A DNA stretch of 64,000 bases from Planctomycetota bacterium (GTDB lineage Bacteria > Planctomycetota > GCA-002687715 > DRQF01), in the NCBI GenBank assembly GCA_036479435.1, contig JAZGFI010000170.1, positions 1-64,000 of the forward strand. Direction: 5' to 3'. Shown piece after piece: positions 13,737 to 27,122 of the stretch (positions are counted from its first letter, which is position 1; each line of letters starts with the position of its first letter). The notes under the pieces are model-generated. The model saw only the letters and a program-made list of their open reading frames with translations. It was not told where the DNA came from and ran no database searches. The position numbers and the translations under genes were made by a program.

Positions 13737-16700
13737 TTGTCTAAATCGCCCCTCAATTGGAAAGCCGTCGCCTTCTTCTCGATGCTGCTTGGTCTTATTG
13801 CGGTCTCGATTGGAATAAGGACCTTGGTCCCCAACGCCGATGCGGCATGGAGGCCAGAACCAAGCCTCCCACAAGAGGAAAGCCTGCCGCCGGTCGACTT
13901 TGCTCGCGACGTCTTGCCGATCCTCAGCGATACCTGTTTCGCCTGCCACGGCCCCGATGCTGCGGCGCGCGAGGGGGATCTCCGGCTCGATCAGAAAAGC
14001 CAGATGATGCAGCAACTCGACGACGAGCTGTGGATCGTCGCACCGGGTAAGCCCCACTTGAGCGAGCTGATTGCGCGTATCGAAACCGATGACCTAGAAG
14101 AGGTGATGCCGCCTTCGGATTCAAAGACCCGGCTTACGGCAAAACAAAAGCAAGTGCTGCGTCGTTGGGTCCAAGAGGGAGCGGTGTGGGAAGAACATTG
14201 GGCCTTTCGTGCGCCCAAAAAGGCAGCGATTCCCCTTGGCGCCGACGCTAGCCCTTCGCGTCACCCGATCGATGGCTTTGTTTCGGCTCGTCATCGGGCG
14301 GCTGGCCTTAGCCCCTCGCCGGTCGCCGCAAAGGACTCTCTGCTGCGTCGCGCATTCCTCGACCTCGGCGGGTTGCCTCCGAGCCCCAAAGAGCGGGCAG
14401 CGTTTCTCGCCGACTCCAGCCAACAGGCCTACGCAAAGGCCCTCGACCGGCAGCTGTCTTCGCCGCGCTTCGGCCAACACTTAGCGGCTTATTGGATGGA
14501 TTTGGCCCGCTACGCCGACACCAACGGGCACTACTTCGACAACGAACGTACCATGTGGCCTTGGCGCGACTGGGTCGTCAACGCCTTCAACAGCAACCTG
14601 CCCTATAGCGAGTTTATCGTGGCGCAGATCGCCGGCGACCTGTTGCCCAACGCGACGGATGAACAGCGCATCGCCTCGGGTTTTAACCGCAACCATCCCG
14701 TGAGTTGGGAGAACGGGATCATCCCCGAAGAATACCGCGTCAAGTACGTATTCGACCGTACGGACACGACTGCGGCTGCGTTTTTAGGTCTGACGATGGG
14801 TTGCGCGCAATGCCACGACCATAAGTTCGATCCCATCTCCCACCTTGAGTACTTCAGTTTCTTCGCCTTTTTTAATCAGGTCACCGATCTTGGGGCGGAT
14901 GGGATCTACGGCAATGCACAGCCGACCTTGCCCGCACCCTCCACCGCACAACGAGATCGTTTGCGTGTCGTCTTGAATGAACGCCAAGGCCTGGACAAGG
15001 CGTTGAATGTGCCCCGGCCGATAGTCGAAGCCGCAGAGGAGGCTTGGATCAAGAACTGGGCTCCCCGCATCTTGAAGGCTTGGAAACCCTTGGGCGTCAT
15101 CAGTGCGAAATCGGAATCCGGGGCGACCCTGTCAATCGTCGATGACGGCGAGATGACCGCCAGTGGTGCTTTGCCCGCCAACGACGTTTATGATGTGCAT
15201 ACGACGACCGCACTCGAAACCGTTGCGCGTTTCCGCTTGGATGCGCTGAATGATCCAGCTTTGCCCAAAGGCGGTCCGGGGCGAGCTGTCGATGGCAACT
15301 TCATCCTCAATGATCTGGAGCTGACGGTTTCGCGCGACGGCGGCAAGACTTTTCAAGCCATCGCCCTGGAAAGGGCTGTCGCGGATACCGCTCGCCTTGG
15401 ATTCCACGCTTCCGCGGCCATCGACGACGACCCGAAGACGGGTTGGGCAGTGGGGCTAAACAACAAGGGGGCTACGCGCTCGTTGATGCTGGAACTCGAC
15501 CAGCTTTTGACGCGACAGCCCCAGGACCCCGCCTTCATTATTCGATGGCGCCTTCACCACGACGTCGGCTATCCCGATCACTCCTTGGGCCGCTTTGCTC
15601 TCTGGGCTTGTTCCGAGGCGGAACTCGGTCCCGATGACGTTCGCCTATCCTTGGGGCCCTGGCGTAGCCGCGACCTGGCGCCCGATCAAGCCGACATGCC
15701 CGCTGAAGACCTGGCCGCATCCGGCGGCTTTGTCGAGCAGCCGACTTGGCGGGACGGCCGTCTGCTCAAGATCTCTGCAGAGTCTTCACGCGTCTTGTTG
15801 CGTCGGAGCCTCGACGTCAGTGCTGACGCGAGTTTTCGGCTTGAGATTTCCGCCGCTTCCGGTCTTAGGGTCTGGCTAGACGGCGAACTAAAACACCATC
15901 ATCTGCAAGAGCGCAGCATCATCCCCGCGCAGGACCGGGTGCCGCTCGTGTTAACAGCGGGGCACCACAAACTCTTGGTCGAGTTAAGGACCGACGCCAA
16001 AAATCCCGCGGACTTCTACTTCGATCTTCGCCGGGCCGCGACCGAAAGCCTAGAGTTCGAAGCCGAAGTGATCGTCACCCGCCCAGAGTTTCACAAAAAC
16101 GAGCCGGCCCTGATGGCGCTGCGGCGCTACTACCGGCGGCGTTTTCATCCCGAGCTTCGCGAGCTCATCGACGAATATGATCGCGTCGATCAACTCGCGC
16201 ATCGGCTCGTCGATGAAGTCCCAACTCCGATGGTGATGGAAGACCGTAAGAATCCTCGCAAGTCTCATCTGCTTTTGCGAGGTCGCTACGATCAACCTGG
16301 TGAGGAAGTTACCCCGAACACCCCGGCGGCCCTGCCGCCGCTAAACGCCCGCGGTCCAGGTCTCGCCGACCGCTTGGATCTGGCGCGTTGGATGATCGAC
16401 CCGTCCCATCCTCTTACTGCTCGTGTCGTCGTGAACCGAGTCTGGGAGCAGCTTTTTGGCAAAGGGTTCGTGCCCACGGCGCAAGATTTTGGGATACGCG
16501 GCGAAAGGCCTTCTCATCCAAAACTGCTAGACTGGTTGGCCGTCGAATTCGTTGAATCCGCTTGGGATCTAAAAGCGCTCTACAAGCTCATCATGACGTC
16601 TGATACTTACCGAAGAAACTCAGTGGCCGTGGCGAACAGCCGGCAATCCGATCCTGAGAACCGCTGGCTCACCCGGGGACCTCGCACTCGGCTTTCCGCT

Positions 16701-17321
16701 GAAACCTTGCGTGATCAGGCGCTTTACGTCGCGGGTCGACTTAATGAGGCACAGGGCGGGCGGTCCTTTTTTCCTTATCAGCCCCCGGGAATCTGGGAAG
16801 AGGTGAGTGGGACCGGCGGCGCATCAGCGCAGTTTTACCGGCAAAGCCACGGCGATGACCTTTATCGTCGGAGCCTTTATGTGTTTTGGAAACGCTCTGC
16901 GCCCTGGCCGCCATTTTTGATCTTCGATGCCCCGACCCGAGATATTTGCACGGTCTCACGTCAGGTCACTAACACCCCGCAGCAGGCCTTGGTGTTGATG
17001 AACGAAACCTCTTTTGTCGAAGCGGCACGACTCTTCGCCGAGCGCCTCTTGAACGATCCAGCCGTCGAGGACGAAGCTCGGCTGAAACGGGCCTTTTTGT
17101 ACGCACTGTCGCGTGAAGCCGAAACCGAGGAACTTCGCACTCTGCAGGTCTTGTTGGCGGCGGAGCGGCGCTCTTTCCGTGAGAATCCACAGGCGGCGAA
17201 GCTGCTTCTTGAAGTTGGCGAGACGCCAGCGTCTACGGAGTTCGACGCGATCGAGTTGGCCGCCTGGGCTCTCGTTGCGAACACCATCATGAATCTCGAT
17301 GAAATGGTGACCAAAGAATGA
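13737..17321 (+). CDS. Planctomycete cytochrome c / DUF1549 / DUF1553 (PSCyt, PSD1) protein
   Basis: CFACHGPD, WMDLARYADT, CAQCHDHKFDP, VNRVWEQLFG, HPKLLDWLA, TNTPQQALVLMN. Confidence 0.93.
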   Translation: MSKSPLNWKAVAFFSMLLGLIAVSIGIRTLVPNADAAWRPEPSLPQEESLPPVDFARDVLPILSDTCFACHGPDAAAREGDLRLDQKSQMMQQLDDELWIVAPGKPHLSELIARIETDDLEEVMPPSDSKTRLTAKQKQVLRRWVQEGAVWEEHWAFRAPKKAAIPLGADASPSRHPIDGFVSARHRAAGLSPSPVAAKDSLLRRAFLDLGGLPPSPKERAAFLADSSQQAYAKALDRQLSSPRFGQHLAAYWMDLARYADTNGHYFDNERTMWPWRDWVVNAFNSNLPYSEFIVAQIAGDLLPNATDEQRIASGFNRNHPVSWENGIIPEEYRVKYVFDRTDTTAAAFLGLTMGCAQCHDHKFDPISHLEYFSFFAFFNQVTDLGADGIYGNAQPTLPAPSTAQRDRLRVVLNERQGLDKALNVPRPIVEAAEEAWIKNWAPRILKAWKPLGVISAKSESGATLSIVDDGEMTASGALPANDVYDVHTTTALETVARFRLDALNDPALPKGGPGRAVDGNFILNDLELTVSRDGGKTFQAIALERAVADTARLGFHASAAIDDDPKTGWAVGLNNKGATRSLMLELDQLLTRQPQDPAFIIRWRLHHDVGYPDHSLGRFALWACSEAELGPDDVRLSLGPWRSRDLAPDQADMPAEDLAASGGFVEQPTWRDGRLLKISAESSRVLLRRSLDVSADASFRLEISAASGLRVWLDGELKHHHLQERSIIPAQDRVPLVLTAGHHKLLVELRTDAKNPADFYFDLRRAATESLEFEAEVIVTRPEFHKNEPALMALRRYYRRRFHPELRELIDEYDRVDQLAHRLVDEVPTPMVMEDRKNPRKSHLLLRGRYDQPGEEVTPNTPAALPPLNARGPGLADRLDLARWMIDPSHPLTARVVVNRVWEQLFGKGFVPTAQDFGIRGERPSHPKLLDWLAVEFVESAWDLKALYKLIMTSDTYRRNSVAVANSRQSDPENRWLTRGPRTRLSAETLRDQALYVAGRLNEAQGGRSFFPYQPPGIWEEVSGTGGASAQFYRQSHGDDLYRRSLYVFWKRSAPWPPFLIFDAPTRDICTVSRQVTNTPQQALVLMNETSFVEAARLFAERLLNDPAVEDEARLKRAFLYALSREAETEELRTLQVLLAAERRSFRENPQAAKLLLEVGETPASTEFDAIELAAWALVANTIMNLDEMVTKE

Positions 17322-18751
17322 GGCGCGAAGACCGACGACAATTTTTGGCTCGCCTCGGTGCCGGGGCCTTTGCTAGCGCCGCCATGGGATCGCGAATCGG
17401 CCCGACCTTGGCTAACACTGCCGAGGTCGGGGGCACCCTGGGCCCGATCCCACACCATCGACCGCGAGCCAAACGCGTGGTGTTTTTGTTTCAGTCCGGC
17501 GCGCCTTCGCAGTTGGAACTCATCGACTACAAGCCCGGTTTGAAAAAACTGCACGGCAGCGAGTTTCCCCCTTCGGTCCGCGATGGACAACGTCTCACGT
17601 TGATGACCGCTAATCAGAGTTCTTTTCCCATTGTCTCACCGATGTTTGGTTTTTCGCAACAGGGCCAAAGTGGGAGATGGTGGGGCGATCTCACACCGCA
17701 TACCGCAAAGATTGTGGATGACCTATGCGTGATCAAGTCGATGCACACCGAAGCGATCAATCACGATCCCGGCATCACCATGTTTCAGACCGGTTCTCAG
17801 ATTCCCGGCCGGCCATCCATGGGATCATGGGTGGCATGGGCTCTCGGCGGGTTTTCAAAGGACCTACCGCCCTTCGTCGTCTTGATCTCTCAAGGCAGCG
17901 CCTTACGCGCCGCTCAGCCCTTATTCGCGCGGCTGTGGGGTGCGGGGTTTTTGCCTTCCTCGCATCAGGGGGTGAAGTTTCGCAGCCAAAACGATCCGGT
18001 GCTGTATCTGCAAGATCCTCCCGGTGTTTCATCGGCAGCCCGGCGGCGGATGTTGAACGCCCTGCGCGAACTGAACTCGCGCAAGGCCGCGCTTAGTGGA
18101 GACCCCGAGGTCGGCACACGAATGGGACAGTACGACTTGGCGCACCGGATGCAGAATTCGGTGCCCGAACTCGCGGATTTATCGAAAGAGCCGGATTCGA
18201 CCTTTGAGCTTTACGGCCAAGACGCTCGCAAGCCCGGGACTTACGCCTCGAACTGTCTGATGGCAAGGCGGCTTTTGGAACGCGGAGTGCGTTTCGTACA
18301 GCTTTACCACCGCGGCTGGGACCAACACGAAAACCTCCCCGCTGACATTCAGCGGCAATGCCGCGACACCGATCAGGGTAGCGCTGCCTTAGTGATGGAC
18401 CTAAAGCGCCGCGGCTTGTTGGAAGACACCCTCGTGATCTGGGGGGGAGAGTTTGGGCGCACGGCGTTTTGCCAGGGTCGGCTTACGGGCAGCAACTACG
18501 GGCGAGACCACCATCCGCGTGCTTTCTCAATGTGGATGGCGGGGGCTGGCGTGAAGGCCGGAACGGAGTACGGAAAAACCGACGACTTCTCCTACAACAT
18601 CGTCGAGAATCCCGTCCATGTTCACGACCTTCAGGCGACGATCCTTCACCTTTTGGGAATGGATCACGAGCGTGTCACCTACCGCTATCTCGGCCGCGAC
18701 TTCCGACTCACTGATGTCGCGGGAAAGGTCGTCCACGACATCTTGACCTAA
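17318..18751 (+). CDS. DUF1501 family protein with a Tat signal
   Basis: RRQFL Tat motif, GAPSQLE, AINHDP, GWDQH, WGGEFGRT, GRDHHP. ATGA overlap with the PSCyt gene. Confidence 0.93.
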   Translation: MRREDRRQFLARLGAGAFASAAMGSRIGPTLANTAEVGGTLGPIPHHRPRAKRVVFLFQSGAPSQLELIDYKPGLKKLHGSEFPPSVRDGQRLTLMTANQSSFPIVSPMFGFSQQGQSGRWWGDLTPHTAKIVDDLCVIKSMHTEAINHDPGITMFQTGSQIPGRPSMGSWVAWALGGFSKDLPPFVVLISQGSALRAAQPLFARLWGAGFLPSSHQGVKFRSQNDPVLYLQDPPGVSSAARRRMLNALRELNSRKAALSGDPEVGTRMGQYDLAHRMQNSVPELADLSKEPDSTFELYGQDARKPGTYASNCLMARRLLERGVRFVQLYHRGWDQHENLPADIQRQCRDTDQGSAALVMDLKRRGLLEDTLVIWGGEFGRTAFCQGRLTGSNYGRDHHPRAFSMWMAGAGVKAGTEYGKTDDFSYNIVENPVHVHDLQATILHLLGMDHERVTYRYLGRDFRLTDVAGKVVHDILT

Positions 18752-18761
18752 GACCTCAAGG

Positions 18762-20828
18762 CTATTCTGCCTTAAGGTGCCGATCGAAGAACTCCCAAAG
18801 GGTCTTGCTGGCTCCGCGCCCCAAGCCGTGGCCGCTGTTGGGGAAAAACCGGCTTTCGTAGCTCGCATCGTTGCGATCGAGCGCGGCGATGAGCTGAAAG
18901 GCGTTGGTGGGATGGACGTTGTCATCAATCATGCCGTGCATGATGAGAAGATGGCTACCCGAGCGTTTGTAGTTGCGGATGTATTTTTTGTTCATGGCGC
19001 GCCCGACGTCGTAGCCCTTTTTGTTGAGCTGTGGCGTGCTCATGTAGCGTTCGGTGTAGATCGTGTCGTAGTGACGCCAGTCCGTAACTCCTGACATGTT
19101 GACGCCAGCGTGATAGACATCGGGGTGTTTTAGGACGCCCATTGCTGTCATGTAGCCGCCGTAGGACGACCCAATGATGCCGACGCGGTCGCCATTGAAG
19201 TAAGGGCGTTTACTCAACAGGCGAATGGCATCGGCGTGGTCTTGGATATCGACATCACCGAGTCGAAGGTAGTTGGCCCCCAGAAAGGCCTTGCCCCGGT
19301 TGCCAGTGCCGCGGTTGTTAACTTTGACGACGAGGTATCCCCGGCCGTTTTCGCGGCGCGGCCTGGAAACATAGCGAGCCGAAATTTCGTTGGACCCGGG
19401 GCCGGCGTAGAGCGAGTTGATGACGGGATAGACTTTCGATGCGTCGAAGTCCTTGGGTTTGTAGAGAATGCCGTAGATATCAAAGCGGTCGTCGGCGGAT
19501 CGAAACTTGAACATCTCCGCCAGGTTGGCCGCGTCTTTGGGATCGGCTTCCGCCAGCTTGGCGATGAGTTTTCCCTTCGTGTCGTAAAGCACGGTACAGG
19601 GAGGCGTGTTGACCTCTTCGTACTGGGCGACCAGCCATTTACGATCCGGAGATAAGTTGAACTTCGAATGGTGATAGTCGAGACTCGTCACCCGGTGTTG
19701 TTTCGTGCCATCGAGATTGCCGATGTGGAATTGCAGGTAGTAGGGGTTATTCTTGGAGCTATAAGCGGCAAAGGCCAACTCGCCGGCATCTTCGTCTAGC
19801 CAGCGAATGCCCGCGGTTTGATAGTCACCTCGGGTGACAGTGTGGTGAAGAGTCCCGTCGAGATCGCGTAGCTCGTAGTGCGTGAAGCCGGATTTTTCGG
19901 TCGGCCATAAAAAGCGATGCCCATCGGCAAGGTAGCGCATCGAAGGTCTGTTGGACTGCCAGGTGTCTTGGTTTTCTTCAACGATGGTCGTGCAAGCACC
20001 GGTCTCAAGGTCGATGCGAAAGACCTTGAGGTGCTGTTGCAAGCGGTCTGTCCAGTTGACCAGCATCGCCTTGCCATCGGCCGACGCGCGCACGCCGTAG
20101 ATATACTCCTCAGATCCGCCTCCGGCGTCGATCTCGACGGTTTTCTTCGTGGCGAGGTCGTAGACTAAAAGCGCGGCGGCGGGATTTTGGGCGCCGGCCT
20201 TGGGGTAAAACTCTGGGTAGTGTTTCGTGTTGAGTTTGCTCCAACCCGTCACGAGGTGAAAAGGTATGACGCCGGTGTCGTCGAATTTGTAGAATAAGAT
20301 CTTCTTCGAGTCAGGCGTCCACCACATGGCCGTGTTTTGGTTGAGTTCTTCGCCGTAGACCCAGCTTGCGGTGCCGTAGTGAACCCTTGCGTTGCCGTCA
20401 GCCGTGACGGCAACACTGCCCGACCCGTTTTTGGGTTTTAAGACGAGGTTCCAGTTTTCGTAGTGAGCTTCCCAGGCACCATCAGGGGAGTCGACCCGAG
20501 TGTACTGTCTGCCTCGCCCGGGACGTCCCTTGTAGTCACCGGTCGAGGCCGGGGCGGTGTCGCGGCTCGACCGCCGGCTGGCGAGACTTTTGGAGTTGTC
20601 ATCCGCTTCGCCATCGAATTCGATTTGCTTTTTGCTCTCAAGATCGAAGCGATAGGCCGTCTTTTGCTTGCTGAAGTAAAGATAGCGACCGTCGTCACTC
20701 CAACGAACTTTCGATACGACACCGGGGCCGTTCCCGCTTCCGCGCTGGGCTTGCAAAGTCGATGTCGATGACAACAACAAGATCGAGCTGGCGAGGGTGA
20801 AAAGAGCGATCGGCAGGACTCGTAGCAT
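18762..20828 (-). CDS. Secreted S9B dipeptidyl-peptidase IV-like peptidase
   Basis: Signal peptide, WVYGEEL, nucleophile elbow GSSYGG, YDTIYTERYM, HGMIDDNVH, catalytic His in SGHG. Confidence 0.92.
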   Translation of the reverse strand: MLRVLPIALFTLASSILLLSSTSTLQAQRGSGNGPGVVSKVRWSDDGRYLYFSKQKTAYRFDLESKKQIEFDGEADDNSKSLASRRSSRDTAPASTGDYKGRPGRGRQYTRVDSPDGAWEAHYENWNLVLKPKNGSGSVAVTADGNARVHYGTASWVYGEELNQNTAMWWTPDSKKILFYKFDDTGVIPFHLVTGWSKLNTKHYPEFYPKAGAQNPAAALLVYDLATKKTVEIDAGGGSEEYIYGVRASADGKAMLVNWTDRLQQHLKVFRIDLETGACTTIVEENQDTWQSNRPSMRYLADGHRFLWPTEKSGFTHYELRDLDGTLHHTVTRGDYQTAGIRWLDEDAGELAFAAYSSKNNPYYLQFHIGNLDGTKQHRVTSLDYHHSKFNLSPDRKWLVAQYEEVNTPPCTVLYDTKGKLIAKLAEADPKDAANLAEMFKFRSADDRFDIYGILYKPKDFDASKVYPVINSLYAGPGSNEISARYVSRPRRENGRGYLVVKVNNRGTGNRGKAFLGANYLRLGDVDIQDHADAIRLLSKRPYFNGDRVGIIGSSYGGYMTAMGVLKHPDVYHAGVNMSGVTDWRHYDTIYTERYMSTPQLNKKGYDVGRAMNKKYIRNYKRSGSHLLIMHGMIDDNVHPTNAFQLIAALDRNDASYESRFFPNSGHGLGRGASKTLWEFFDRHLKAE

Positions 20829-21148: not shown

Positions 21149-22372
21149 ATGAACTTGAAATTACTGATCATGGCGCTCTTGCTGAGCGCGGTCGCTCTGT
21201 CGACCACCTTGGCGCAAACGAGTAAACCGGCGAGCAAGCCGACGAGCCAAACAAGCGTCGAAGATGCCGGTGAAACCATGAAGGCGCTTCGGACGGCCTT
21301 TGAGAAGAAGTCGATGGAAGTCTTCGGCGAGTTCCAAAAAATTAGGTCCACGATGAGTCCTGAGGAGATGCAAGCTTGGGTCGACAAGAACCGACCGAAG
21401 TTCGCGGAGGTTGGAGTGCCGCTTCAAAAGCTGATTCTCGCGAATCCGAAGCACGAGCAGAGTCAAGAATCTCTCTCGTGGATGATGAGCCGAGGACAAG
21501 ACGATGCTCTGGGAGACTGGGCGGTAGACCAGGCCTTAGCGAAGTATTCCGACAGAAAATGCGCCGGGGACGCCTTCGAGGTGTTGCAAAATGACATTCG
21601 AGTCAAGGCGACTAAAAAGCTCGAGCAGCTCGCCAAGAGTCAAAATGCTAGCCAGAGCGTACGCGCCCTGTTCGCTTTGGCCGGTCAGCTCAAGGCGCGC
21701 TCCAAGTTTGTTGAGGCGGCACCTGGGTTTAGTGGGGCACAAAAAAAGAGCATCGTGAAGGCCTTCGGCCAAGACGAACTCGATGCGGCCCTCAAGAGCG
21801 ACGCCAGCAAGCTCGTGGCCAGATCCGAAGCGACTTTGCTTGCCGTGATCGCTCATCCCGCCGCTAAATCCACGAAGTTAAATGGACAAGCGATCGAAGC
21901 ACTCGCGCAGCAACAGCTCGATAGGATGCAATCTTTGACCGTGGGCAAGATGGCACCCGAGATTACAGGAGCCGACGTCGATGGCGCCAAGTTCAAACTT
22001 AGCGACTATCGCGGTAAAGTTGTTCTGCTCGATTTTTGGGGCACTTGGTGAGGACCTTGTGTGGCCATGTTGCCCCACGAGCGGTCGCTCGTCAGTAGTT
22101 ACAAAAACCGTCCCTTCGCCCTCGTTGGAGTCCAAGTGGGAGACGCGCCCGAAAAGGCGAAGTCTTTCGCCAAAGAGAACTCCATTACTTGGCGCTCTTT
22201 CTTCGACCAAGCCGGAGCCATCGCCAATGCTTGGGGCGTTGAAGGCTACCCTTCGCTGTACTTGATCGATCACGAGGGCATTCTTCGCGAAGCCGCTTTC
22301 CGTGGCGAAGACAAGGTCGACGAGTTCGTCGCCAAGTACGTCGCCATCGCCGAAAAGGCCATGAAGAAGTAA
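21149..22372 (+). CDS. Exported TlpA/redoxin-family selenoprotein (UxxC); Sec at UGA 22049-22051
   Basis: ORFs 20957-22051 and 22061-22372 are in the same frame, joined as DFWGTW-TGA-GPC-VAMLPHE. The TGA occupies the first Cys of WCxxC. LSDYRGKVVLLDFW precedes it and WGVEGYPSLYLID (cis-Pro loop) follows. Signal peptide MNLKLLIMALLL. Confidence 0.9.
22077..22092 (+). promoter_or_regulatory. Bacterial SECIS-like hairpin
   Basis: ACGAGC-GGTC-GCTCGT is a perfect 6-bp stem with a G-first loop starting 31 nt after the UGA. Confidence 0.75.
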
Positions 22373-22402
22373 AGTTGAACGCGTTCAGTCGCACTGATTG
22401 AC

Positions 22403-22445
22403 CCGCCGCGGAGTGAGCACAGCTCGCTGCGCGGCGGTTTTTCTT
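22403..22445 (+). terminator. Intrinsic terminator after the redoxin
   Basis: CCGCCGCG..AGTGAGC-ACA-GCTCGCT..CGCGGCGG followed by TTTTTCTT. Confidence 0.75.
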
Positions 22446-22472
22446 GGGTCCAAACCAAACGGGAGTAGCGCT

Positions 22473-24086
22473 CTACTTCTGCTGGCCGAGTTTCCGATCA
22501 CAAAGGGCGATCTGTGCATCCAAGACCTTGAGCACGCCGTCTTGGCCCCGGTAGTGGGGCTCTTGGCGCAAACGTAGGTAGAGGCTACGAGCACGAGCGA
22601 ACTGATTTTTCCCCATCAACCAGCTGGCGCAAGCGAGAGCGGCGTTCGAAAAGAACGGGCCGCTCAGTCGAGGGTGCGCGCGGACGTGGGTTTCGACTTT
22701 TCCAAAGTCCGCGGGATTGCCGATCTGGCCCATGAGTTGCCGTAAGAAATCCATCGCGGCCTTGTCGCGGGCCGTCTTTTCGCGGAACTCGCGAAAGACT
22801 AGGGCTGCGGCATTGAGAGTTCCCTCGTGCAGGGTTTTTGCGTCGCGGTTACGAAACTGGAATTTCAATTCCTTCGCGCTGACGTCGAGTCGAAGGTAGG
22901 AGTAAGGGGCTCCTTGATCCCACAGCAAACCCGGATGCGGCTGATTGGCGGCCCCGATAATGCGTCCGTGCATCGGTGAGCTAATGAACTCGTGAAGGCG
23001 ATAGCCGGCGGACTTTTCGCTGAGGTGGCTAAGGTGGCGGGAACGGTGAATGTCACCTCCGATTAGCACGACGCCAGAGATTTTTTCTTCACCGATGAAG
23101 CGAAACAGCGCCTCCCGCTCGGCGGGATAACTCGCCCAATGGTCGGGCTTTCCTGGTCTTACCGCGCCGTTCCAGATCATCCCGCAAGCGAGGATCTTAA
23201 ACGGTGCGCGGCTTTTCCTAAGACTCTCGGTTAGCCACTGCCACTGATCTTTGCCGAGCAGAGTTGGCGTTCCGGGCGCAGCGCTGGAATCTTCAGTAGC
23301 GGCAAAAGTGCGCGTATCGAGCAAAAAAACCTCGGCGGCACCGCAGCTAAATCGTTGATAGATGCCCGCATGCTTGCCGGGATCATTCGGATGGCGGCGA
23401 TACTCAATGAACGCGCGGCGTGAATTCTCTTTGCCCGGCAGATTCCCGTCGCTGTCGTTGCGGCCAAAATCGTGGTCGTCCCAGATGGAGTACAGCGGTG
23501 TGCGGCGAACGACGCGAGCCAAAGCTCCCCAGCCTGCGAATTCTCGGTAGCGCCGGCGCTGGACCGAAAGGCGCGTGGTGTCGATGTAAGGCGTATCGCC
23601 CAAAAGCACCAAGGCATCGGGCCTATCTTCGCCGATGCGTTCTAAGACGCGGCCGGTTGCTTCATTTTCGTCGGCGCAGGATGCGAAGACGAGGCGGGTT
23701 GACGCGCGCCTTCGCGGCGGAGTGCGGACAAAAAGCGCCGAGCCGGCCATAAAGGAGCCAGTGCTGGTCAACAGCCGGATACCGTAGAGCGTGTCGGGAT
23801 GGAGCTTTCTTAGTCGAATTGTCGCGCAGAAATCTCGTTTTTCGAGCGCGATCAGGTCGATGAGAACGGGATTAGTCGGCTCAGGACTTTCGAACTTGCT
23901 GAGTTCGACTTGGTAGCGCCCTTCGCGGTCGAACCTGAACCACAGTTCGCATTGGGTGGCGTCGCGCTGCAGTAGCACCGGGCCTTGAAGGAGTGCGCCC
24001 TGAGGCGCCTCACTTTGCGCGGCTATTGACGCCAGCAAGATCAATGAAAAGGATAGAGCCACAAGTTGAAAGGGAATTTTGGGCAT
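22473..24086 (-). CDS. phoD: PhoD-family alkaline phosphatase with a helical C-terminal extension
   Basis: FASC, LLGDTPY, IWDDHDF, LLDTR, LLGKDQWQWL, GGDIH. Sec-pathway-type signal peptide. Confidence 0.85.
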   Translation of the reverse strand: MPKIPFQLVALSFSLILLASIAAQSEAPQGALLQGPVLLQRDATQCELWFRFDREGRYQVELSKFESPEPTNPVLIDLIALEKRDFCATIRLRKLHPDTLYGIRLLTSTGSFMAGSALFVRTPPRRRASTRLVFASCADENEATGRVLERIGEDRPDALVLLGDTPYIDTTRLSVQRRRYREFAGWGALARVVRRTPLYSIWDDHDFGRNDSDGNLPGKENSRRAFIEYRRHPNDPGKHAGIYQRFSCGAAEVFLLDTRTFAATEDSSAAPGTPTLLGKDQWQWLTESLRKSRAPFKILACGMIWNGAVRPGKPDHWASYPAEREALFRFIGEEKISGVVLIGGDIHRSRHLSHLSEKSAGYRLHEFISSPMHGRIIGAANQPHPGLLWDQGAPYSYLRLDVSAKELKFQFRNRDAKTLHEGTLNAAALVFREFREKTARDKAAMDFLRQLMGQIGNPADFGKVETHVRAHPRLSGPFFSNAALACASWLMGKNQFARARSLYLRLRQEPHYRGQDGVLKVLDAQIALCDRKLGQQK

Positions 24087-24122
24087 GGTGAGGCTCGATG
24101 GAGAATGACGAGTCCCGAGACT

Positions 24123-24968
24123 TTACTCCAGTCTCAGAGTCTTGGCGAGCGAGCGCTGCGTGTCTTTCGTCAAGCCCAGTTCGTCGATGCTAATCCCCAG
24201 TTGCTCCGGAGATCCCCAATTTGCGAACCAGGCATTGAGCCGCATCGTGGCCGTGGAGTTGACGTAGTCTTTAAGATTGGGGTAAATCGCTTGCAGCTCG
24301 GCGTCAATCTGCTGGTAGCGGCGTAGTTGGTATTTTTGATGATAGTCTTCCGCGAGCCAGAACTTGAATTCAGATTCGATGGCCGTGGTCGTCGGCCGGT
24401 TTTTTTCTTCTGCGACTTTGGCTAAGGCCGCTCGCGAGATGTCGGCTTGACGCGCATTGTGCGCGAAGACGACGGAGCGGTATTGCTTGGACCAACTGGG
24501 ACCGGTTGCGTCATGCGCGCCTATGAACACTTGGACGAGTTCTTCGTAGTCGATGACCGAGGGGTCGAAGTCGATCTCGATCGTCTCGCTGTGATCGGCA
24601 ATCCTGCGGTAGGTTGGCGATGGCGAACTGCCGCCGCAGTAGCCGACTCGGGTGCGGATGACTCCAGGAAGACCCCCAAACTGGGCGTCGGGTCCCCAAA
24701 ATCAACCGAGCCCGAATGTCGCCGTCTCAAAGGCTGAAGGCGCCTTTTGGTCGAGGATGGGGCGCCTATAACGAAGCGTGAACTCTGGTTTGGGGCGGAT
24801 TTCTGGAGACGGCATGATCGGGGCGCTCCTGAAGCTTGATGCGGCGGGCTGAGGGCTGGGCTTTGATGTGGGGCCCTTGGTTATGATTTTGACTTGGCGC
24901 GGATTTGAGCCACAGGAGAAAAGTGCCAAGAGCAGGCAGCCTAAGGCGAGCGCGGCTATTGATTTCAT
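24123..24968 (-). CDS. msrA: Lipoprotein peptide-methionine (S)-S-oxide reductase MsrA, selenoprotein; Sec at UGA 24704-24702
   Basis: ORFs 24702-25049 and 24123-24530 are in frame and read ETATFGLG-TGA-FWGPDAQFGGLPGVIRTRVGYCGG...PTY...DHSETIEIDFDP...QYRS...AEDYHQKY. The TGA replaces the Cys of GCFWG. Lipobox LFSC. Confidence 0.92.
24671..24694 (-). promoter_or_regulatory. SECIS-like hairpin of msrA
   Basis: Minus strand GACC-CGACG-CCCA-GTT-TGGG-GGTC; the apical G lies about 20 nt after the UGA. Confidence 0.5.
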
Positions 24969-25067: not shown

Positions 25068-25907
25068 GTGTCTGAATTTCGCGGAACTGAATCCTATGTC
25101 GCCACCGAAGATCTGATGATCTCAGTGAACGCTGCCCTGGCCCTAGAGCGCCCGCTGCTGGTCAAAGGCGAGCCGGGCACTGGCAAGACTCAGTTGGCCC
25201 ATGAAGTCGCGGCCAGTTTGGGCAAGTCGCTTTTGACCTGGCACATCAAGTCGACCACCAAGGCTCAGCAGGGGCTCTACGAGTACGATGCCGTAGCGCG
25301 CCTGCGCGACTCCCAGCTCGGTGATCCTCGCGTTGGTGACATTGAAAGCTACCTGGTGAAAGGACCACTTTGGGAAGCCTTCGAAGATCGGACAGGAGCG
25401 GTCTTGTTGATCGATGAAGTCGACAAGGCGGACCTGGAGTTTCCCAACGACTTGTTGCTCGAACTCGACGCCATGCAGTTTTATGTCTACGAGACCAAAA
25501 AAACCATCAAGGCCGAAAAGCGGCCCTTGGTCATCATCACGTCCAACAACGAAAAAGAACTGCCCGACGCTTTTCTGCGGCGCTGCTTTTTTCACTACAT
25601 ACGCTTTCCCGATCGGGGCACTATGCGCGCCATTGTGGCCGTCCACTTTCCTGATCTTCGCGCCAAGCTACTCGAGAGTGCTTTGGAGGTTTTCTACGGA
25701 CTTCGCGAGGTCTCGGGCTTGAAGAAGAAACCCTCGACCTCTGAGCTCCTCGATTGGTTGAAGTTACTGGACTCTGAGTCCGACGGACTCAGCTTGTTGA
25801 AAGACGGTGAGGAAGGGCTTCCCCCGCGGCTCGGTGCCTTGCTGAAGAACGAACAAGACCAGGCCTTGTTGCGTTACCGCGCCGAGACTCGCGGCAGCGC
25901 GCTATAG
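25068..25907 (+). CDS. MoxR-family AAA+ ATPase (CoxD-like)
   Basis: GEPGTGKT, LYEYDAVARLRDSQL, LLIDEVDKAD, ELPDAFLRRC. Confidence 0.93.
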   Translation: MSEFRGTESYVATEDLMISVNAALALERPLLVKGEPGTGKTQLAHEVAASLGKSLLTWHIKSTTKAQQGLYEYDAVARLRDSQLGDPRVGDIESYLVKGPLWEAFEDRTGAVLLIDEVDKADLEFPNDLLLELDAMQFYVYETKKTIKAEKRPLVIITSNNEKELPDAFLRRCFFHYIRFPDRGTMRAIVAVHFPDLRAKLLESALEVFYGLREVSGLKKKPSTSELLDWLKLLDSESDGLSLLKDGEEGLPPRLGALLKNEQDQALLRYRAETRGSAL

Positions 25908-25913
25908 ACCGCG

Positions 25914-27122
25914 ATGTTTCTCGACTTCTTCGATGATCTGAAGGCGCAAGGTATTCCGGTCACGCTCCGCGAATACCTCGACCTTCTGGCAGCCCTGTTG
26001 GCTGGGCTCGGTGGTTTTTCCTTGGAGCGCTTTTACTACTTGTCGCGCACGGTGCTGGTGAAAGACGAAAAGCACTTTGATCGCTTTGATCAGGTCTTCA
26101 AACATCGTTTCGAGGGATACGCGGCTCCCGCCGCATTGGACCCTCAGGCTTTGCCCGCGGAGTGGCTAGAAAACCTCAGCGAGACTTTTCTAAGCGAAGC
26201 GAAGCGACGTCAAGCGCAAGAACGGGGTAGTTTCGACGAGATTCTTGAGGAACTGAGGAAAAGACTGGCCGAACAAAAAGAACGTCATGCGGGTGGCTCG
26301 AAGTGGATTGGGACGGAGGGCACCTCGCCTTTCGGCGCCAACGGCTATAACCCCGCCGGCGTTCGCATTGGGGCGAACGGGCCCGGCCAGCAGCGCGCCC
26401 TCAAAGTCTGGGATGAGCGCCAGTACTCGAACCTCGACGACCGGCGCGAGATTGGCACTCGCAACTTCAAGGTCGCCTTGCGTCGACTCCGTTCCTTCGT
26501 GAGAGAGGGCGCCGAAGAAGAGTTTGACTTGGACGCGACGATTAAGGCTACGGCGGCGAGCGGGGGATTGCTGGATGTCGTCATGCGTCCCGAGAAACGC
26601 AACAAGACGCGACTGTTGATGTTGCTGGATGTCGGCGGTTCGATGGACCGTTACGTGAAACTAACGGAGGAGCTCTTTTCCGCGGCTCGGTCTGAGTTTG
26701 CAGACTTGCAGTTTTTCTATTTTCACAACTGCGTTTACGAAACCTTGTGGCGTGACAATCCGCGAAGGCCGGCGGCCGAGCTGAGCACGCAGGATCTTTT
26801 GGCGACTTTCGGGACCGACTACACCTTGATTGTCGTCGGTGACGCCTCGATGAGCCCCTATGAGATCATCGAAGTGGGGGGAAGCGTTGAGCACTGGAAT
26901 CAAAAAAGCGGCGAGTATTGGCTCGGTCAGCTGCTTGCGCATTTCCCCAAGCGGATTTGGCTCAACCCGATTCCGGAATCTGATTGGTTGTACACCACGT
27001 CTATTGGCATGGTCCGCGCTCTCGCCAAGGGTCAAATGGAAGAACTCAGCGTCGCCGGACTTGACCGCGCGTTTGGTTTTCTCCGCGGCAGGGTTCAGAC
27101 GTCGAGGCCAAGGGCTCGGTAA
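25914..27122 (+). CDS. VWA-domain protein (CoxE-like), MoxR partner
   Basis: GGSKWIGTEGTSPFG, MIDAS-like DVGGSM, YFHNCVYE, VGDASMSPYE, WLNP. Confidence 0.9.
   Translation: MFLDFFDDLKAQGIPVTLREYLDLLAALLAGLGGFSLERFYYLSRTVLVKDEKHFDRFDQVFKHRFEGYAAPAALDPQALPAEWLENLSETFLSEAKRRQAQERGSFDEILEELRKRLAEQKERHAGGSKWIGTEGTSPFGANGYNPAGVRIGANGPGQQRALKVWDERQYSNLDDRREIGTRNFKVALRRLRSFVREGAEEEFDLDATIKATAASGGLLDVVMRPEKRNKTRLLMLLDVGGSMDRYVKLTEELFSAARSEFADLQFFYFHNCVYETLWRDNPRRPAAELSTQDLLATFGTDYTLIVVGDASMSPYEIIEVGGSVEHWNQKSGEYWLGQLLAHFPKRIWLNPIPESDWLYTTSIGMVRALAKGQMEELSVAGLDRAFGFLRGRVQTSRPRAR

Follow-up and report, generated by a model that had tools for sequence, protein, structure and literature searches.

Two selenoprotein genes in a planctomycete genome: a TlpA-like redoxin and a methionine sulfoxide reductase with a predicted second translation start

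The window analysed here is a stretch of 64,000 nucleotides from a Planctomycetota bacterium (NCBI GenBank assembly GCA_036479435.1, contig JAZGFI010000170.1, positions 1 to 64,000 of the forward strand). Between positions 21,149 and 24,968 it holds two convergent genes less than 4 kb apart, one for a TlpA/ResA-like redoxin (tlpA) and one for a methionine sulfoxide reductase A (msrA), and, as a preliminary description of the locus had noted, each has an in-frame UGA at the codon of the catalytic cysteine (Table 1). There is one such TGA per gene, and both genes are intact once it is read as selenocysteine (Sec). Judged from sequence, the products belong to known selenoprotein families and form no conserved module; the feature that sets the locus apart is a conserved dual start in msrA, well supported though unproven. 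We consider it probable that tlpA and msrA are chance neighbours, that msrA is a dual-start gene of the CoMsrA type, and that its exported product would draw on a shared pool of redoxins fed by DsbD.

Two genes read through UGA

The genome assembly (5.47 Mb, 92% complete) holds selA, selB, selC and selD: selA, a TGA-containing selD and the tRNA-Sec gene lie together on contig C117 and selB on C237, with the three protein genes over their curated cut-offs and the tRNA-Sec scoring 67 bits. TGA occurs within all 53 redoxin-domain matches of the tlpA family, spread over 22 of the 23 genomes of the class. The msrA clade was assembled from the window gene, 16 loci held by 15 of 60 relatives searched (all from other genera) and the best 80 of 588 further loci (1.21 Mb from many phyla, many ending at contig edges), less three duplicates; identical loci were counted once and two loci outside the clade, L075 and L076, were excluded. 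The Sec position is TGA in 90 of these 94 loci and TGC or TGT in four. In the window itself, the alternative that either codon is really TGC or TGT was checked against contigs of three sequencing runs, all of which carry both TGAs unchanged: contigs from X1 and X2 run the full length of the window without a differing letter, that of X4 covers both TGAs with none, and a fourth run, X7, covers neither; the comparison is between assembled contigs, and X1, X2 and X4 are possibly this DNA's own sources. The search for sequencing runs with this DNA listed no RNA run.

Each UGA is followed by a selenocysteine insertion sequence (SECIS). Bacterial elements (bSECIS) are described, in the available passages of PMC13188914, as having a loop of 3–9 nt with a G in its first two positions, 16–37 nt after the UGA, and both hairpins satisfy these spacing and loop-G rules. 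In tlpA, 28–30 of 30 sequences agree at each position from +28 to +44, synonymous sites included, and the consensus of 30 redoxin genes folds at −8.6 kcal/mol into a 6-bp stem with a GGUC loop. In msrA, the three core pairs are kept in 89, 89 and 90 of the 90 Sec genes, and pair 20:30 is broken in all four Cys genes; the consensus core alone reaches −6.8, short of the −7.5 of the bSECIS model, and the window's 41-nt stretch −16.3. The energy of neither hairpin is significant against shuffles (z −1.59 and −0.78 over 60 nt), and support for the elements therefore comes from conservation at synonymous sites, not from folding energy alone. The downstream hairpins proposed earlier thus stand as conserved SECIS elements in both genes, but that of tlpA is the short stem-loop at 22077–22092 and not the long hairpin beginning at the UGA. 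Since +28 to +44 is invariant and folds as a stem-loop, the HERSLV motif of the TlpA family appears to be its SECIS read as protein, which offers a simple DNA signature for locating mis-annotated genes of this family. A metagenome scan with the TlpA query P0001 used a Cys pattern: 71 of 78 loci matched the motif, all 71 of Cys type, msrA lay nearby in one of the 78, and no Cys control was gained for the HERSLV hairpin.

Gene callers split both genes, as predicted: fragments of 300, 101/103 and 135 residues stand as separate public proteins, and the 88-residue front piece of MsrA was not found in the public protein collection (four of six fragment look-ups gave an entry). Both UGAs almost certainly encode selenocysteine, and we infer its insertion into both proteins from the codons, the SECIS elements and the decoding genes.

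The redoxin matches the Pfam families AhpC-TSA (7e-25) and Redoxin (above cut-off). It has the thioredoxin fold of these families, a (C/U)xxC motif and an export signal recognised by eye, as TlpA/ResA-type proteins do, and it scores below the curated NCBIfam cut-offs (ResA, the best, 93.5 against 170; TlpA 60.1 against 230). The passages available of PMC13188914 (Table 1) already catalogue both Sec-MsrA and UxxC redoxins as selenoprotein families; with the latter (Prx-like PF00578, Redoxin PF08534 and thiol-disulfide isomerase-like cd02966) the window protein shares UxxC in an AhpC-TSA/Redoxin domain, but it differs in a long N-terminal region that no Pfam family covers, in falling under every NCBIfam cut-off and in a HERSLV motif apparently fixed by the encoded SECIS. 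In line with the earlier proposal that both proteins carry export signals, TlpA has a Sec/SPI-type signal peptide and MsrA an LFSC lipobox, as judged in the window by eye and a hydropathy rule.

The reductase matches PMSR in Pfam and TIGR00401 with a score of 108.7 (cut-off 108.1). Its best match by sequence in the PDB is CoMsrA of Clostridium (Alkaliphilus) oremlandii OhILAs (PDB 4LWJ, 4U66; PMC4479559, cited from its available passages here and below), over residues 81–270 at 9e-38 with the helical domain included. An AlphaFold model (pLDDT 84.8) superposes on CoMsrA at a TM score of 0.90 (on the target) and a root-mean-square deviation of 2.1, and the two proteins share GUFWG in a PMSR domain and a C-terminal helical domain. 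The window protein appears to have no conserved resolving Cys: Cys111, the only other Cys of the mature domain and so a possible candidate, is present in three of 16 aligned sequences. Sequence and model thus point to a CoMsrA-type one-Sec methionine-S-sulfoxide reductase. The two differ at the N-terminus: CoMsrA has 209 residues, and its Sec, at residue 16, comes too early for a signal to fit in front of it, whereas the window gene encodes a predicted lipoprotein signal and a linker, with a predicted second start behind them. CoMsrA, without a resolving Cys, is reduced by glutaredoxin (Grx) and not by thioredoxin (Trx), and is regenerated via Grx attack or a homodimer (PMC4479559). The 92%-complete genome gave no match to glutaredoxin (PF00462) or GshB (PF02955), which raises the question of what would reduce a one-Sec MsrA outside the cytoplasm. 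By its title, a 2011 paper by Kim et al. reportedly describes a Sec-Grx1/Sec-MsrA tandem in C. oremlandii, and an all-Sec MsrA relay for the cytoplasm is therefore said to be already in print. There too, going by that title, a selenoprotein reductant serves Sec-MsrA, but the partner is a glutaredoxin and presumably cytoplasmic.

Table 1. Positions of the tlpA and msrA genes and of the elements within and between them
Feature	Position	Strand	Remarks
tlpA-like gene for a Sec-redoxin (TlpA/ResA-like)	21149..22372	+	407 aa with TGA read as Sec; signal peptide, then a region of ~240 aa, then a C-terminal thioredoxin fold with WUGPC
In-frame TGA of tlpA	22049..22051	+	Sec301, attacking residue of the UxxC motif
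SECIS of tlpA	22077..22092	+	6-bp stem; GGUC loop 31 nt after the UGA; encodes HERSLV
Terminator-like hairpin with T-tract	22403..22444	+	Closes the tlpA unit; −32.1 kcal/mol; tip matched by consensus scan
Gene for a PhoD-like phosphatase	22473..24086	−	537 aa; signal-like N-terminus; between tlpA and msrA
Sec-MsrA gene, CoMsrA type	24123..24968	−	Long form 281 aa; C-terminal helical domain
Upstream msrA start and predicted lipoprotein signal	24912..24968	−	h-region, LFSC lipobox, Cys19
Predicted second msrA start	24813..24830	−	AGGAG Shine-Dalgarno (24830-24826), 10-nt spacer, ATG 24815 (Met52)
In-frame TGA of msrA	24702..24704	−	Sec89 in GUFWG
SECIS of msrA	24671..24689	−	Short stem; loop AGUUU 19 nt after the UGA; G second in the loop

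The predicted second start of msrA

Export signals, called across the clade where a start codon precedes a hydrophobic stretch free of charged residues, occur in 70 of the 94 loci, 29 of them with a lipobox; two of 188 control frames pass the same test. The alignment places a Met about 32 codons ahead of Sec in most members, and 55 of the 70 signal-bearing loci have an in-frame ATG that follows the hydrophobic stretch and precedes Sec by 20–40 codons, with a peak of 35 ATGs at −31 to −33. In 45 of the 70 the internal ATG comes with an anti-Shine-Dalgarno duplex of −5.5 kcal/mol or lower. The background expected from the mature domain is 22% for an ATG in this zone and 4.1% for an ATG with a Shine-Dalgarno (SD) sequence, and an SD 4-mer stands ahead of 43 of the 55 internal ATGs and of 27 of the 216 ATGs further downstream. 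The pattern, a conserved in-frame internal start with its own ribosome-binding site behind an export signal, recurs in 35 clusters at 70% identity that are scattered over the tree and many phyla.

In the model of the window's long form, residues 2–16 form an N-terminal helix and Met52 lies at the end of a disordered, low-confidence linker, so that the predicted 230-residue signal-less form would retain the whole folded enzyme. The genome has one further PMSR match, a Cys-MsrA on contig C201 with a lipoprotein-like signal, and the short form may therefore be the cell's cytoplasmic MsrA. That gene (C201:18555-19178) and an MsrB gene on C116 (L158:1441-2190) both have lipoprotein-like signals, and every Msr gene found in the genome looks exported.

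The gene is probably translated from both in-frame starts into an exported and a cytoplasmic isoform. Initiation at ATG 24968 would give a lipoprotein anchored outside the cytoplasmic membrane, and initiation at ATG 24815, served by its own SD, a signal-less cytoplasmic enzyme; both forms would use the same UGA and SECIS. The Sec-MsrA studied so far is signal-less and glutaredoxin-dependent, in contrast to the 70 clade loci with export signals and the 45 with a second start and ribosome-binding site. Should both starts be used, the clade would be a broad bacterial case of dual localisation by alternative initiation. N-terminal proteoforms are a recognised, thinly characterised class, and the available passages on them make no mention of Msr (PMC13515050). 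A literature search of titles and abstract openings, with subscription papers outside it, returned no exported or dual-start Sec-MsrA and no selenium-based envelope methionine-repair pathway. A precedent is Neisseria PilB, where, in the passages available, one msr gene yields a periplasmic form and, from an internal AUG, a cytoplasmic form, and where envelope methionine repair is fed by DsbD (PMC6210582). PilB, however, is a Cys-based TlpA-MsrA-MsrB fusion whose internal start removes a whole domain (PMC6210582); in the window the second start would drop only the signal and linker of a Sec enzyme with no fused redoxin.

Linkage, electron supply and competing explanations

The preliminary description saw in the two genes a clustered pair forming a dedicated Sec relay. 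They are convergent and within 4 kb, but they are not adjacent, the 537-residue PhoD-like gene and a terminator-like hairpin lying between them, and the linkage is not conserved in relatives of other genera. With a TlpA profile that recovers the window gene and the TlpA genes of nine of nine control loci, the TlpA family was not found beside msrA in the 93 other clade loci, many of which are cut short by contig ends. No convincing thioredoxin-fold gene lies in the flanks, of at most 10 kb per side, of the 16 relatives' loci (one match, E 0.45), and the best 80 of the 588 further loci have four (two Sec AhpC-like, two Cys), none of the HERSLV family. Among 150 immediate neighbours at 78 of these 80 loci (L092 and L148 excluded), no thioredoxin-fold Pfam match was found in a screen of table-11 open reading frames of at least 80 residues, which small or UGA-split glutaredoxins may escape; nine neighbours are MsrB or MsrAB and one is a second MsrA. 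Of the 26 msrA and 53 tlpA matches in the class, a single pair besides the window's falls on one contig, at a distance of 149 kb. Of the 23 class genomes, 22 have the TlpA family and nine the Sec-MsrA clade, and four of seven Sec-MsrA genomes outside the class have no P0001 match at 1e-20. Under random placement, the given pairing within 4 kb has a chance of 0.8–2.4% (for 6–19 genes; 2.4% for 19), and any selenoprotein pair within 4 kb a chance of 34–73% if there are 25–45 such genes, a range that is assumed, the census by coding potential being too noisy to count. The two genes are probably neighbours by chance, in separate transcription units, and the local TlpA/MsrA module is probably a coincidence.

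Electrons for the envelope would come from the genome's single DsbD, on contig C271 (81298-82050; L157, L189), which has alpha domains, a membrane domain and a C-terminal UxxC (TUPNC). TGA occurs in the C-terminal part of DsbD in 13 of the 23 class genomes and UxxC in all 12 loci inspected; no consensus fold was obtained from 12 DsbD sequences. The path probably runs from cytoplasmic Trx to the Cys pair of the membrane domain, the Sec gamma domain, the Cys alpha domains and then the redoxins; it mixes Cys and Sec and is therefore Sec-rich, not all-Sec. As DsbD also carries Sec, an unlinked Sec-rich envelope relay stays conceivable. The window TlpA is probably one member of an exported Sec-redoxin family fed by this DsbD: the genome has six matches to the family, the window gene and five close paralogs, and at least 19 loci for Sec thioredoxin-fold proteins, most of which, judged by eye, begin with a signal-like sequence; a tree of 30 places the window gene with two paralogs and one relative's gene. 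In MsrA, the Sec selenolate would most likely reduce protein methionine-S-sulfoxide, and the oxidised Sec, apparently with no conserved resolving Cys, would by analogy with CoMsrA be attacked by an external reductant (PMC4479559). Recycling of the exported form would most likely draw on the shared redoxin pool, the neighbouring paralog being nothing special. We infer export, the use of both starts and each step of electron transfer. The wider claim, that a widespread clade uses two starts to place Sec-MsrA on both sides of the membrane and that in this lineage a genome-wide chain with Sec at three redox steps recycles the exported form (the gamma domain of DsbD, a TlpA-type redoxin that may be the neighbouring one, and MsrA itself), is offered tentatively, as rather more doubtful than otherwise.

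If the TGAs were true stops or assembly errors and the genes pseudogenes, their splitting by gene callers and their energetically ordinary hairpins would be expected, but TGA kept in 90 of the 94 msrA loci and in all 53 tlpA matches, a SECIS constraint specific to Sec genes, a full decoding machinery and identical contigs in three runs leave this explanation a negligible probability. A single product of msrA, the internal ATG being a relic of an ancestral cytoplasmic start or the upstream signal being unused, deserves more weight and is still unlikely. Signal-less members start in the same zone (an ATG at −20 to −40 in 18 of 24), which makes a relic origin plausible; the internal ATG is missing from 15 of the 70 signal-bearing loci; and the linker before it is Glu-rich, a caveat on the SD counts, because such residues alone yield GAG-rich DNA. 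Yet the residues encoded at the internal SD vary while the purine tract persists, at a spacing of mostly 4–10 nt; in 36 of 55 loci no upstream SD is as strong as the internal one; and signal and second start persist together across many phyla. Several points nonetheless count against two starts. Both are predictions from sequence, the window's 10-nt spacer is long and its ATG, at −37, falls outside the peak seen in the clade. The first 16 loci had already been viewed when the SD threshold and the −20 to −40 zone were set, the counts take related loci as if independent, and export signals in the clade were called by a simple rule only.

That the window TlpA is the dedicated reductant of the window MsrA, and the clustering functional, is very improbable. 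Both proteins are predicted to be exported and both have Sec, the 92%-complete genome lacks a glutaredoxin or GshB match, and etrx1-msrAB2-ccdA1 operons (PMC3914529) and PilB fusions (PMC6210582, available passages) supply a known pattern. The low chance of this given pairing within 4 kb also speaks for it and against coincidence, and the comparison that argues for coincidence covers relatives of other genera and many loci that end at contig edges. On the other side stand the convergent layout with phoD and the hairpin between, the family's absence near 16 of 16 relatives' loci and near all of the best 80 of 588 further loci, the single other same-contig pair at 149 kb, and the uneven distribution of the two families within and outside the class. 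Pneumococcal CcdA-Etrx-MsrAB2 likewise combines exported thioredoxin-like proteins with an exported Msr, but there a conserved three-gene operon with ccdA is Cys-based and transfer has been shown (PMC3914529); the window pair has no operon or fusion, no conserved linkage and no nearby ccdA or dsbD. More open, and somewhat unlikely, is that a reductant other than TlpA recycles MsrA, the candidates being a small thiol or selenol, exchange through a dimer with a different thioredoxin-fold selenoprotein, and DsbD acting directly. CoMsrA has no resolving Cys and is not reduced by Trx (PMC4479559), which makes recycling of MsrA by any TlpA uncertain; the window enzyme folds into the same two domains and has no second Cys that is conserved, and the genome encodes several other exported Sec thioredoxin-fold proteins. 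Against this, known envelope Msr enzymes use TlpA-type partners (PMC6210582, as far as its passages go; PMC3914529), and the genome gave no Grx or GshB match. Such a reductant would be compatible with the rest of the explanation preferred here, that of chance neighbours and a dual-start msrA.

Other genes of the window, the clade loci and the genome

The phoD gene starts 37 nt downstream of the msrA stop on the same strand and is possibly co-transcribed with it; it was not seen as a recurring msrA neighbour in the relatives, and a sigma-70 promoter scan gave 0 sites. Divergent from msrA, positions 25068-27122 (+) hold genes for a MoxR-like AAA ATPase and a probable VWA partner. Upstream of tlpA, the block at 13737-18751 (+) and 18762-20828 (−) includes genes that we take to be DUF1549/DUF1553-like and DUF1501-like, of planctomycete type, and, by Pfam scan, a DPP-IV/S9 peptidase gene.

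Among the clade loci, the neighbour that recurs next to Sec-msrA is MsrB or an MsrAB fusion rather than a redoxin (L081, L095, L101, L114, L117, L131, L140, L147, L150), and a gene for a sulfite-oxidase-family molybdoenzyme lies beside it or one gene away in L109, L111, L132, L138 and L154. The only tight same-strand pairing of a Sec-redoxin with Sec-MsrA among the best 80 of 588 loci is in L141 (7770-10618), where one frame, open with TGA read as U, encodes a Sec redoxin of AhpC-like type that lies some 1 kb ahead of a Sec-MsrA, the latter preceded by an HMA-like stretch.

Beyond the window, Sec thioredoxin-fold genes were located on contigs C181, C290, C263, C211, C112, C279, C141, C69, C75, C96, C185, C218, C175, C97, C289 and C294; that on C290 has a long N-terminal part, protease-like by eye, and that on C218 has UxxU. 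An exported two-Sec protein at C274:3989-5113 (−) combines VPGUxxC in a thioredoxin-like part with GMSUYW in an MsrA-like part and resembles NCBIfam NF041383, judged by motif alone; it is a better candidate than the window pair for a fused all-Sec redoxin/Msr-like unit. Further candidates for UGA read-through are a frame with three GU/AU motifs (C124:11104-12024), an HMA-like TUGVGC (C109:1144-1572), an SUCC motif (C293:2013-2957) and WUC motifs in FG-GAP-like repeat proteins (C295:6580-8394 and C220:516-1859).

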